The notes under the pieces were generated by a model, which saw only the letters and a list, made by a program, of their open reading frames with translations, did no database searches and had not been told where the DNA came from. Of a stretch of DNA of 64,000 nt, positions 11,690-14,059 are shown piece after piece (position 1 is the stretch's first letter; each line of letters begins with the position of its first letter). The stretch lies in assembly GCF_056746865.1 (NCBI RefSeq), contig NZ_CM163382.1, one strand, 5' to 3'. A program made the translations under genes and the position numbers.

Positions 11690-14059
11690 ATGGCAGTACA
11701 GATTTCAGGTGTGCTGAAAGATGGTGCGGGAAAACCAATACAGAACTGCACTATTCAACTGAAGGCAAAGCGTAACAGCACCACGGTACTGGTGAACACG
11801 GTGGCCTCTGAAAATCCGGATGAAGCCGGGCGTTACAGCATGGATGTTGAGTATGGCCAGTACAGCGTTATCCTGCTTGTTGAAGGTTTTCCGCCTTCAC
11901 ATGCCGGAACCATTACCGTCTATGAAGGTTCCAGACCAGGTACGCTGAATGATTTTCTCGGTGCCATGACGGAAGATGATGTCATGCCGGAAGCATTGCG
12001 TCGTTTTGAGGAAATGGTGGAAGAAGCGGCACGCAACGCCGAAGCCGCCTCTCAGAGCGCAGCGGCGGCAAAGAAATCCGAAACTGCAGCGGCATCATCG
12101 AAGAACGCGGCGAAAACCTCAGAAACGAATGCAGCTAATAGTGCACAGGCGGCAGCGACCTCAAAGACTGCATCGGCAAACTCCGCGACAGCAGCCAAAA
12201 AATCAGAAACCAACGCGAAAAACAGCGAGACAGCCGCAAAGACGAGCGAAACCAACGCAAAGTCCAGCCAGACGGCAGCGAAAACCAGCGAAACGAATGC
12301 CAAAGCCAGTGAAACTGCGGCAAAAAACAGCCAGGTTGCAGCAGCCCAAAGCGAGAGCGCGGCAGCCGGTTCTGCGACTTCAGCAGCTGGATCAGCAACT
12401 GCTGCGGCTAACAGCCAGAAAGCTGCGAAGACGAGTGAAACTAACGCAAAGTCCAGCCAGACGGCAGCGAAGACCAGCGAAACGAATGCCAAAGCCAGCG
12501 AAACTGCGGCGAAAAACAGCCAGGATGCAGCAGCCCAAAGCGAGAGTGCCGCAGCTGGTTCTGCAAGTGCGGCGGCTTCTTCTGCCACTGCATCAGCCAA
12601 CAGTCAAAAAGCAGCAAAAACCAGTGAAACCAACACAAAGGCGAGCGAGACTGCGGCGACTAACTCGGCGAAAGCATCCGCTGCAAGCCAGATGGCTGCA
12701 AAAGCAAGTGAAGACGCAGCCAGGGAGTACGCAAGCCAGGCAGCTGAGCCGTATAAACAAGTTTTGCAGCCGTTGCCTGATGTGTGGATACCGTTTAATG
12801 ACTCGATGGATATGATTACAGGATTTGGCCCGGGATATAAAAAAATAACAGTGCGCGATGATGTGGTCACTATACCATCCGACAAAATTGTCCCGTTTTC
12901 CCGCGCGAGTTCCGCGACCTATATCAATAAGTCCGGCGCTCTTACCATTGCAGAAATTAATGAGCCACGTTTTGAAAAAGAAGGGCTGTTAATTGAAGGG
13001 CAGAGAACAAATTACTTCACAAACTCAAACGCTCCGGAATTGTGGAATAAAAATCCAGGCCTGAAGATAAGCGAGACAAAAACCGATTCCAGGGGTTTTA
13101 AATATGCAACGTTTACCCCAGAAAAATATTTAGATAGTTCTGGCTCATATGGAATTATATCAGGGGCAGCAGCAAATAAGATAGCGGTAGTCAAAAATGA
13201 TGCAGTTACAATATCCTTTAGAGCAAAAGGGGATAATGTAAGATTTGCGGCTAGATTTGATAAAGGGGATTCGCCAGTTGCTGTAGCTGCCATTTTTATT
13301 GATAGCGCCACACTAGATACATTCACGTCTGGAGCAGATGCGTCTAATATTGCTGTGAAAAATGTTGTTCGTGACGGTGAGTGGGTTGCTGTAGAGGCTG
13401 TTTATAAAGTAACAGACGACTCTACATATATTAACGGCGCCATTCTGATGTCAAACAAACTGGGTGCTAATTTTGATAAGACTAGTTTTATGGATGTAAC
13501 CACCCCTCAAATAGAGCTAGGTTCTTGCTTATCATCATTTATTGTCACACCAGGTGTTCCTGCGACAAGGGCGAGTGATATGGTTATTTTTTCAACCAGA
13601 AATAACATAAGTTCTGTCCCTTTAAGCTGTCTTGTTGAAATACATAAAAATTGGGACTCTACGCCAAATCAGGCCCCACGAATTTTAACCACTATTGGCG
13701 TGGCGACTAATGATGAACAACTGGTATTGGCTTTCAGGACGCCTACAAGTCCGGATGTAGAACCTTTACCTTATGTTCAGTTTGGAGTGAGATCTGCATA
13801 TCTTAGTCCATCTGTGAAGGCCGGGCGCAAAATGATTGCTGGTTTTGTCTGTAATAGCTCGACTGAATTTCGTTGCTGTTGTAATGGTTACCTGTCACCT
13901 GTTCAGACTTCGTCATGGAAGAATACCGGAGCTGCACATGAAATACGTATTGGGGGAACTTCTGCTGGAGGAGAACGTCACTTGTTTGGTCACGTTCGTA
14001 ACCTGAGAATATGGCATAAAGAATTAACTGATGCGCAAATGGGGGAGAGTATTAAATGA
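11690..14059 (+). CDS. Side tail fibre protein, Stf-like N-terminus with divergent C-terminal domain
   Basis: ORF track gives 11684..14059 (GTG); ATG at 11690 gives MAVQISGVLKDGAGKP..., matching the lambda Stf N-terminus. Central Ala/Ser/Thr-rich AAKTSETNAK repeats; the C-terminal ~450 aa are AT-richer and end in a motif (LFGHVRNLRIWHKELTDAQMGE) reminiscent of LamG/concanavalin-like jelly rolls. Confidence 0.8.
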   Translation: MAVQISGVLKDGAGKPIQNCTIQLKAKRNSTTVLVNTVASENPDEAGRYSMDVEYGQYSVILLVEGFPPSHAGTITVYEGSRPGTLNDFLGAMTEDDVMPEALRRFEEMVEEAARNAEAASQSAAAAKKSETAAASSKNAAKTSETNAANSAQAAATSKTASANSATAAKKSETNAKNSETAAKTSETNAKSSQTAAKTSETNAKASETAAKNSQVAAAQSESAAAGSATSAAGSATAAANSQKAAKTSETNAKSSQTAAKTSETNAKASETAAKNSQDAAAQSESAAAGSASAAASSATASANSQKAAKTSETNTKASETAATNSAKASAASQMAAKASEDAAREYASQAAEPYKQVLQPLPDVWIPFNDSMDMITGFGPGYKKITVRDDVVTIPSDKIVPFSRASSATYINKSGALTIAEINEPRFEKEGLLIEGQRTNYFTNSNAPELWNKNPGLKISETKTDSRGFKYATFTPEKYLDSSGSYGIISGAAANKIAVVKNDAVTISFRAKGDNVRFAARFDKGDSPVAVAAIFIDSATLDTFTSGADASNIAVKNVVRDGEWVAVEAVYKVTDDSTYINGAILMSNKLGANFDKTSFMDVTTPQIELGSCLSSFIVTPGVPATRASDMVIFSTRNNISSVPLSCLVEIHKNWDSTPNQAPRILTTIGVATNDEQLVLAFRTPTSPDVEPLPYVQFGVRSAYLSPSVKAGRKMIAGFVCNSSTEFRCCCNGYLSPVQTSSWKNTGAAHEIRIGGTSAGGERHLFGHVRNLRIWHKELTDAQMGESIK

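Follow-up and report, generated by a model that had tools for sequence, protein, structure and literature searches.

A duplicated nine-heptad unit in the putative coiled-coil rod of a lambdoid side tail fibre, and length alleles that keep the heptad phase

The side tail fibre (Stf) of Ur-lambda has been modelled as a trimer: residues 1-91 are a collar, 92-101 a linker and 102-393 a proximal coiled coil, after which come a hinge and a distal part, the collar portion StfN 1-91 being dodecameric (Yu et al. 2025, Sci Adv, PMC12617516). PCoil, a segment of the E. coli prophage collagen-like proteins EPclA/B, was found by circular dichroism (CD), analytical ultracentrifugation (AUC) and rotary-shadowing electron microscopy (EM) to be a reversible trimeric alpha-helical coiled coil; it is nearly devoid of Leu, Ile and Val, and the segment varies in length by multiples of seven (Ghosh et al. 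2012, PLoS One, PMC3368898). Residues 130-173 of DpK2 from Klebsiella phage RAD2 lie within an unmodelled N-terminal region, where an extended triple-helical bundle is visible in the cryo-EM density (Dunstan et al. 2021, PMC8552709). Here we analyse an stf-like gene in a stretch of 64,000 nucleotides of contig NZ_CM163382.1 (NCBI RefSeq assembly GCF_056746865.1), which is called the window below. We consider it very likely that the tract 12005-12739 of this gene codes for the proximal rod of a side tail fibre of the lambdoid type, a trimeric heptad coiled coil which contains a duplicated unit and changes its length in phase.

The gene starts at ATG 11690, the equivalent of the start used by RefSeq WP_000290535.1 and two codons downstream of the GTG (11684) from which the lister of open reading frames (ORFs) let it begin. 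Its protein matches PF08400 (phage_tail_N) at residues 3-133 (Pfam scan, E = 1.8e-67) and phrog_1419 across its full length (residues 3-790). The collar domain, residues 1-94, matches StfN of Ur-lambda, the chain "Tail fiber protein" of PDB entries 9e7m/9mgh, both solved by cryo-EM (phmmer, E = 1.5e-49); 9e7m is also its top Foldseek match, with 88% identity. To judge from this likeness, the domain would be what anchors the fibre at the tail's gpV/gpM junction. The J homologue (8132-11629, + strand) is complete, with all the gpJ Pfam domains, and 60 bp separate it from stf; for the tail genes farther upstream, V, G, T, H, M, L, K and I, annotations exist in locus L001, which is 100% identical. 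The DNA here is 100% identical to that of E. coli 118UI, in which stf ends a lambda-type tail module adjoining appY-ompT-envY-nfrA. By its collar domain, its position after J and its helical rod, the gene belongs to the lambdoid Stf family. This stf has neither the lambda-type gp37-like distal tip nor the downstream gene of the Tfa chaperone; those two define lambda's own allele, not the wider Stf family with its mosaic C-termini.

The likeness to lambda Stf (orf-401 of NC_001416, which we used for this comparison and not the relative H70, Lambda_4C10, interrupted by an insertion sequence) covers the position of the gene after J and extends into the rod: in lambda too, an A-x-x-S lattice runs uninterrupted from residue 106, over about 36 heptads against 35 here. 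Unlike the window stf, lambda Stf has no strong 189-bp DNA repeat (best lag identity 0.44). The distal parts are different as well, that of lambda being T4 gp37-like, OmpC-binding and Tfa-dependent, whereas the distal half of the window stf is a lectin-like beta-sandwich of the ConA/LamG/galectin type after which no intact tfa follows. As in the EPcl proteins, the heptads come after a PfN (PF08400) domain; in those proteins, unlike in the window stf, a collagen triple helix and PfC domains come next, and the periodicity of PCoil is "loose", whereas our tract is longer (245 aa), has a strict lattice and contains a defined duplicated block of 63 aa. Finally, heptads of the SE(T/S)NAK type weakly match residues 130-173 of DpK2 (PDB 7lzj, E about 6e-4). 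DpK2 differs from Stf in being a tailspike, with a short helical segment and a beta-helix as its depolymerase body, and the two have no collar domain in common.

The tract (Table 1) is made of 35 consecutive heptads of consensus A-(K/A)-x-S-(E/A/Q)-T-(A/N), without a single stutter or skip: position 1 is Ala in 30 of them, position 4 is Ser in 32, and position 7 is Ala or Asn. We computed the self-identity of the DNA over 12008-12742 (an interval offset by one base from the heptad register of 12005) and compared it with two controls, codon shuffles and heptad shuffles, every heptad being kept intact in the latter. At a lag of 189 bp the identity reaches 0.641 (z = 14 against codon shuffles and 6.8 against heptad shuffles), and at 21 bp it is 0.506 (z = 8.7 and 1.4). 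The values at 30 bp (0.349, z = -0.1 against codon shuffles) and at 183 bp (0.335) are those of the codon-shuffle background, about 0.35. The autocorrelation of the protein peaks at multiples of 7 only (7, 14 and 63), with its maximum at 63, and stays at background (0.16) at lag 10. Tandem Repeats Finder (TRF) reported sub-periods of 21 and 42 bp and, at 12221-12659, a period of 189 bp with 2.3 copies, 84% matches and a score of 612; the start-to-start spacings given by a second, independent repeat finder are 189 bp and multiples of 21 bp. The 42-bp (14-aa) period was rejected, since against shuffles with intact heptads (z = -0.3) it is no stronger than the lattice of 21 bp. The 21-bp layer reflects the heptad, and the 189-bp one is a true, old internal duplication of nine heptads.

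A preliminary description of the sequence had read 12050-12720 as nested tandem repeats coding for a fibre shaft, with a decapeptide of the type AAKTSETNAK as the short unit and two near-identical copies of a ~183-bp long unit. Coding for a fibre shaft is borne out by the PF08400 collar, by phrog_1419 and by the alignment of the tract with the proximal coiled-coil domain of lambda Stf. The nested repeats themselves are real and exceed both chance and composition bias, but both periods must be corrected, to 21 bp for the short unit and 189 bp for the long one. AAKTSETNAK occurs four times (residues 182, 196, 245 and 259; spacings 14, 49 and 14) and is a ten-letter word within the heptad lattice, not a decapeptide repeat. 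Two long units are indeed present; the start proposed for the first, 12237, was right, the second unit was 6 bp off, and at 85.7% identity "near-identical" was generous.

Units A and B differ at 27 of their 189 positions, 21 of which are third codon positions, and the codon changes are 18 synonymous and 5 non-synonymous. Over their first 140 bases the units are about 93% identical, and the longest exact run between them is 29 nt (12254-12282 and 12443-12471). A partial third copy follows, which the second repeat finder places at 12599-12659 (77% to its reference). No Phage_fiber_2 (PF03406) or collagen-like (PF01391) repeats were matched in the Pfam scan at E <= 0.01, and the tract contains no G-X-Y pattern.

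Table 1. Features of the stf-like gene and overlapping open reading frames, in coordinates of the window
Feature	Coordinates	Strand	Evidence or remark
Side tail fibre gene (stf-like), 789 aa	11690-14059	+	ORF, PF08400, phrog_1419
N-terminal collar domain (StfN / PfN), residues 1-94	11690-11971	+	phmmer, Foldseek
Unbroken 35-heptad tract, residues 106-350	12005-12739	+	Heptad register, 21-bp periodicity, AF2, homologues
Unit A, 189 bp (63 aa, 9 heptads), heptads 12-20	12236-12424	+	TRF, repeat finder, unit comparison
Unit B, 189 bp (63 aa, 9 heptads), heptads 21-29	12425-12613	+	TRF, repeat finder, unit comparison
Partial third copy (AKTSETN TKASETA...)	12614-12659	+	Accounts for the 2.3 copies of TRF
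Conserved junction after the shaft (AAEPYKQVLQPLPDVWIPFND)	12740-12802	+	Columns E353-D371 invariant in alignment A1
C-terminal lectin-like part, residues ~434-789	12989-14056	+	Laminin_G_3, GTA_spike_fiber, AF2, Foldseek, variability
Shadow ORF, 279 aa, +1 frame of stf	11976-12815	+	Synonymous fraction 0.18
Shadow antisense ORF, 182 aa, TTG start	12052-12600	-	Frame of lambda orf206b; wobble shared with stf
Shadow antisense ORF, 87 aa	12135-12398	-	Synonymous fraction 0.11
Shadow antisense ORF, 65 aa	12441-12638	-	Synonymous fraction 0.11
Shadow antisense ORF, 93 aa	12604-12885	-	Frame of 12052-12600, parted from it by the stop at 12604

We then compared the length of the tract among relatives, as the distance between the anchors RRFE and AAEPY which flank it, in the 120 closest protein clusters and the window protein. 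This distance is 247 aa in 102 sequences, one of which is the window; it is 63 aa shorter (184 aa) in 10 sequences and 63 aa longer (310 aa) in 6, and one sequence each has 191 aa (-56) and 177 aa (-70). All these distances are equal modulo 7. In nature, tracts of 26, 35 and 44 heptads occur, in which the 63-aa unit is present once, twice and three times, besides tracts of 34, 27 and 25 heptads. Changes in shaft length by slippage or recombination, as the preliminary description had proposed, agree with these steps of 63, 56, 70 and 7 aa and with a hybrid unit described below.

The individual alleles show how the steps are placed. The 854-aa protein of locus L002 contains three units; of these the first and second, U1 and U2, differ at 3 of 189 nt; such near-identity points to a recent duplication. 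That of L003 (727 aa, from a draft assembly) has a single hybrid unit, with A-like sequence as far as offset 74 and B-like sequence from offset 86 on, which is what is expected of an unequal crossover between A and B. This 727-aa one-copy protein is found, identical, in at least six independent assemblies from different projects, and the isolated phage IdasGreatGrand also has one copy (26 heptads), in which the mixture of A and B is more mosaic than in L003. Heptads 7-14, which lie between two AKTSETN heptads, are missing from locus L004, and L005 lacks heptads 18-27. The C-termini of three-copy forms are of three types (845, 854 and 864 aa), and a locus from IMG/VR, L078, has 44 heptads. Among the assemblies, GCA_016595135.1 has three units, and GCA_907165415.1 and GCA_907164335.1 have one. 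In the closed genome of strain PK8276 (L088, NZ_CP080146.1, 2285-4573) the tract is otherwise nearly identical to that of the window and has lost heptad 17, AAQSESA, alone, which leaves 34 heptads. The stf of PK8276 is preceded by a tail-terminator-like gene and not by J, so that the prophage there is rearranged or degraded.

Of 5426 closed E. coli genomes, about 1000 carry this shaft type. The median difference between A and B inside an allele is 28 nt, against 8-9 nt for A-A and B-B comparisons between alleles; this means that the duplication is older than the diversification of these alleles. Two copies are the old, dominant and stable norm.

In the fibre, three chains would form a parallel alpha-helical coiled coil from the 35 heptads, with an unusually small and polar core, Ala at "a" and Ser at "d". 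The rod would join the collar domain, the clamp of the fibre on the tail, to the variable lectin-like end that binds the receptor. Its estimated length, taking 0.148 nm per residue, is about 36 nm, of which a 63-aa unit makes up about 9.3 nm. We infer the trimeric helical structure from the studies of lambda Stf, PCoil and DpK2 and from a low-confidence AlphaFold2 (AF2) model, and the trimer state in particular from cryo-EM and electron tomography of lambda Stf and from AUC of PCoil.

Since the DNA is 21-bp periodic and the 189-bp unit is exactly nine heptads, a misalignment guided by homology would give a product which is both in frame and in phase. Unequal crossing-over between sister or homologous copies, or slippage in replication, would add or remove whole heptads, and the rod could lengthen or shorten with its coiled-coil phase intact. 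The low observed frequency of length changes fits the 14% divergence of the units and the shortness of their exact runs.

The junction AAEPYKQVLQPLPDVWIPFND closes the helical tract, right before the conserved start of the C-terminal part, and a hypervariable segment opens about 90 residues beyond it. The similarity of relatives to the window often stops inside the tract or just past it (query positions 473, 579-630, 894 and 1143-1163), and the C-terminal halves of stf are mosaic among relatives. This fits the known role of conserved rods as joints for the exchange of receptor-binding modules; in chimeric side fibres, foreign tips were fused at R393 of lambda Stf, the end of the rod (Brödel et al. 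2024). A resolvase/invertase gene (PF00239 and HTH_7), which recalls the Pin/Gin-type systems of tail-fibre inversion, lies just downstream of the fibre cluster on the - strand in two relatives (L002, 7460-8050; L004, 7095-7685), the ones that carry a 346-aa Peptidase_S74 protein; the window does not have it.

Several points weigh against this reading of the tract as a coiled-coil rod with in-phase length change. Rod structure is known for homologues, from which it may carry over to this protein by analogy. An Ala/Ser core is atypical for coiled coils, the canonical cores of which are Leu/Ile/Val; the one found here resembles that of PCoil, which is experimentally helical and trimeric. The AF2 monomer is helical over residues 100-351 (helices 100-222, 235-290 and 292-351), with a predicted local distance difference test score (pLDDT) of only 30-60 in the tract and with a break of the helix at Gly-containing heptads (223-234). 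Such low confidence is expected for a single chain of a trimer; the single-chain model lends weak support, to helicity only, and the fold search with the whole model informs on the end domains only. The recombination pathway, be it RecA, a phage recombinase or slippage, as well as any phenotype or fitness effect of rod length, are matters that we infer. Lastly, variants in length make up a minority, 18 of 120 clusters, and about 29 full-length matches from a spread sample of closed genomes are all gap-free and two-copy. This shows that the repeat is not highly unstable.

Two neighbouring heptads in each unit are Gly-bearing or Ala/Ser-only, AAGSATS AAGSATA in A (12362-12403, heptads 18-19) and AAGSASA AASSATA in B (12551-12592, heptads 27-28). 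The AF2 monomer breaks or kinks its helix there, with low confidence (223-234 and 291), and these pairs could be flexible points of the rod.

The scarcity of the variants in closed genomes leads to the alternative which survives best, namely that the one- and three-copy alleles, ±63 aa, are artefacts of short-read assembly and that the true count is always two. Most of the variant alleles come from draft assemblies, the three-copy ones having been seen in drafts and in IMG/VR only. When one- and three-copy alleles were used as queries against the closed genomes, the top matches were all two-copy or 34-heptad (for the three-copy query, the top 12 closed E. coli genomes all have two copies, with a span of 892 bp), so that no one-copy or three-copy allele is among these top matches; merged pieces bar a count across the ~1000 carriers. 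Moreover, a collapsed de Bruijn path would also produce a hybrid unit with A on its left and B on its right, and L002 contains an exact repeat of 257 nt, which short reads cannot span and which could have led to a mis-assembled copy number there. However, the longest exact repeat within two-copy alleles is only 29-52 nt, below the usual final k-mers and the read length, which makes a collapse unlikely, and U1 and U2 of L002, with their 3 differences, are not one path walked twice. The recurrence of three-copy forms with different C-terminal types and in IMG/VR, and that of the one-copy form in assemblies of different origin and in an isolated phage, also speak against artefacts. In addition, the deletions of 56 aa and 70 aa, and that of one heptad in a closed genome, lie between much shorter repeats, and the rule of heptad multiples does not rest on the ±63-aa classes alone. 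Hence we consider it improbable that assembly accounts for these alleles.

A second alternative sees in the tract a contingency locus, that is, a fast and reversible switch of fibre expression or specificity, like simple-sequence phase variation. Tandem repeats in genes of surface proteins often behave in this way, and the copy number does vary among relatives. Yet the periods (21 and 189 bp) and the insertions or deletions (21, 168, 189 and 210 bp) are all multiples of 3 and of 21, and never shift the frame; the units are 14% diverged, from a duplication which predates the divergence of the alleles; and two copies are present in 102 of the 120 clusters and in all sampled closed genomes, which speaks for rare events and not for a switch. 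We give this explanation very little credit.

A third alternative concerns the frames that overlap stf. Five ORFs of 65-279 aa are open in other frames along the tract (Table 1), because every stop codon, on either strand, needs a T on the + strand and the tract is poor in T (8.8%, against 25% in the whole window), a consequence of the T-poor codon set used for Ala, Ser, Lys, Thr, Glu, Asn and Gln. The preliminary description had already held the long ORFs of both strands to be spurious, with which the T content, the synonymous fractions and the stops found in relatives agree. We compared 53 related 35-heptad alleles with the window and counted 36, 34 and 130 polymorphic sites at stf codon positions 1, 2 and 3, with a synonymous fraction of 0.63 in the frame of stf, 0.18 in that of the +1 ORF and 0.11 in the antisense frame of offset 1. 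Purifying selection thus acts in the frame of stf. The remaining antisense frame has a fraction of 0.59, which is uninformative because its wobble positions are shared with stf. It is in this frame that the 182-aa ORF lies, open in the window, and that the lambda reference annotation (L087, NC_001416) has orf206b (lambdap90, hypothetical protein; 1248-1868, - strand), antisense to the heptad tract of lambda stf. A genuine overlapping gene, the counterpart of orf206b, would help to explain the conservation of the tract, and 59% of the polymorphisms are indeed synonymous in its frame. But this excess follows from selection on stf alone, and in about 50 of 54 related alleles a stop at 12520 (or at 12331 or 12415) cuts the ORF. 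Besides, the ORF begins with TTG, exists only where T is depleted, and its predicted product mirrors the Ala/Ser codon set. It is thus most improbable that the tract carries a genuine antisense gene, and lambda orf206b is probably a long-standing artefact of annotation.

That the periodicity is a mere amino-acid and codon bias of a low-complexity segment rich in Ala, Ser, Lys, Thr and Glu, with no duplication, has next to no chance of being true: the tract is strongly biased, with Ala and Ser dominant, and lambda Stf shows that a heptad lattice can exist without a strong long-period DNA repeat, but the 189-bp identity is 14 standard deviations above codon shuffles and 6.8 above shuffles with intact heptads, the two units have synonymous codon choices in common, with 21 third-position differences in 63 codons, and relatives differ by exactly one 189-bp unit, so that the heptad-shuffle control and the 63-aa allele series refute it.

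Beyond the rod, the protein's C-terminal part is presumed to be the receptor-binding end. It contains Laminin_G_3 at residues 723-785 (Pfam) and the NCBIfam domain GTA_spike_fiber at residues 434-628. The AF2 model gives it beta strands and a beta-sandwich, with a pLDDT of about 65-91 over 445-610 which drops to 28-50 around residues 611-640 and near the C-terminus. Its Foldseek matches are galectins, the Hc part of botulinum toxin (BoNT-Hc) and the carbohydrate-binding module (CBM) of NanA, while residues ~445-610 are hypervariable among otherwise close relatives. The lectin-like C-terminus suggests a glycan receptor rather than the OmpC of lambda.

The genes around stf complete the picture. 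In place of the 60 bp between J and stf (11630-11689), all fetched relatives (L002-L005 and L090-L097) and lambda carry a gene for a Lom/Ail outer-membrane protein of 199 aa, located at 337-936 or 2337-2936 in the relatives. After stf come a gene for a 93-aa protein (14056-14337, + strand; phrog_1361, no Pfam match) and one for a 234-aa protein (14347-15051, + strand) which has a heptad-like N-terminus and the Peptidase_S74 intramolecular-chaperone domain, and which has 346 aa in some relatives (L002, L004); these two conserved small genes look like a second short fibre or spike module. What is left of tfa is a 111-bp pseudogene remnant, seen in the identical locus L001 (15692-15802). J, intact in the window (1165 aa), is 1 bp shorter in the near-identical strain 118UI and is annotated there as frameshifted (near 8284 and beyond); downstream of 11690 the window and 118UI have a single-base difference in about 14 kb. 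The right end of the prophage abuts appY, ompT, envY, ybcH, nfrA and nfrB (window ~16031-25500, colinear with L001 16348-25845). These surroundings, from appY to nfrB, are the chromosomal location of the DLP12 prophage in K-12, and nfrA and nfrB are adsorption genes of phage N4.

The biology of the rod is ordinary: it is the PCoil or proximal coiled coil already described, including the rule that lengths vary by multiples of seven. In a literature search for explicit reports of copy-number variation in Stf repeats, we found only the remark on "multiples of seven" (Ghosh et al. 2012). What is added here is modest, a strict higher-order unit of 63 aa and a series in which this unit is present once, twice or three times, together with a hybrid junction; this unit and this series bring no new mechanism and leave the understanding of such fibres unchanged.

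Rod spacers built of short repeats are also known in the adenovirus fibre shaft (15-residue repeats), in the streptococcal M protein and in the stalks of trimeric autotransporters. In such adhesin shafts, the number of repeats varies between strains through intragenic recombination, so that the reach changes while the binding domain stays the same. These proteins have other folds and other repeat lengths and are not homologous to Stf, and the analogy is one of principle only. One may ask whether the length of the Stf rod is an adaptive, tunable trait, the 63-aa module being a ~9-nm spacer of which the copy number is selected to suit the depth of the O-antigen or capsule of the host, through which the lectin-like tip has to reach. 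We hold this to be rather unlikely. If it were true, one, two and three copies would give rods of about 27, 36 and 46 nm, and the copy number would co-vary with the type of receptor-binding domain or with the serotype of the host, and would not follow neutral drift.

The result has consequences for annotation, as it accounts for a group of long false ORFs on the two strands, one counterpart of which persists as orf206b in the reference annotation of lambda, and it brings the period of the repeat back to the heptad, which has a structural meaning. Finally, the allele series (25, 26, 27, 34, 35 and 44 heptads) shows that the Stf rod tolerates the gain and the loss of whole heptads. This suggests that, in the engineering of chimeric lambda side fibres, the length of the rod may be varied in steps of 7 or 63 residues.

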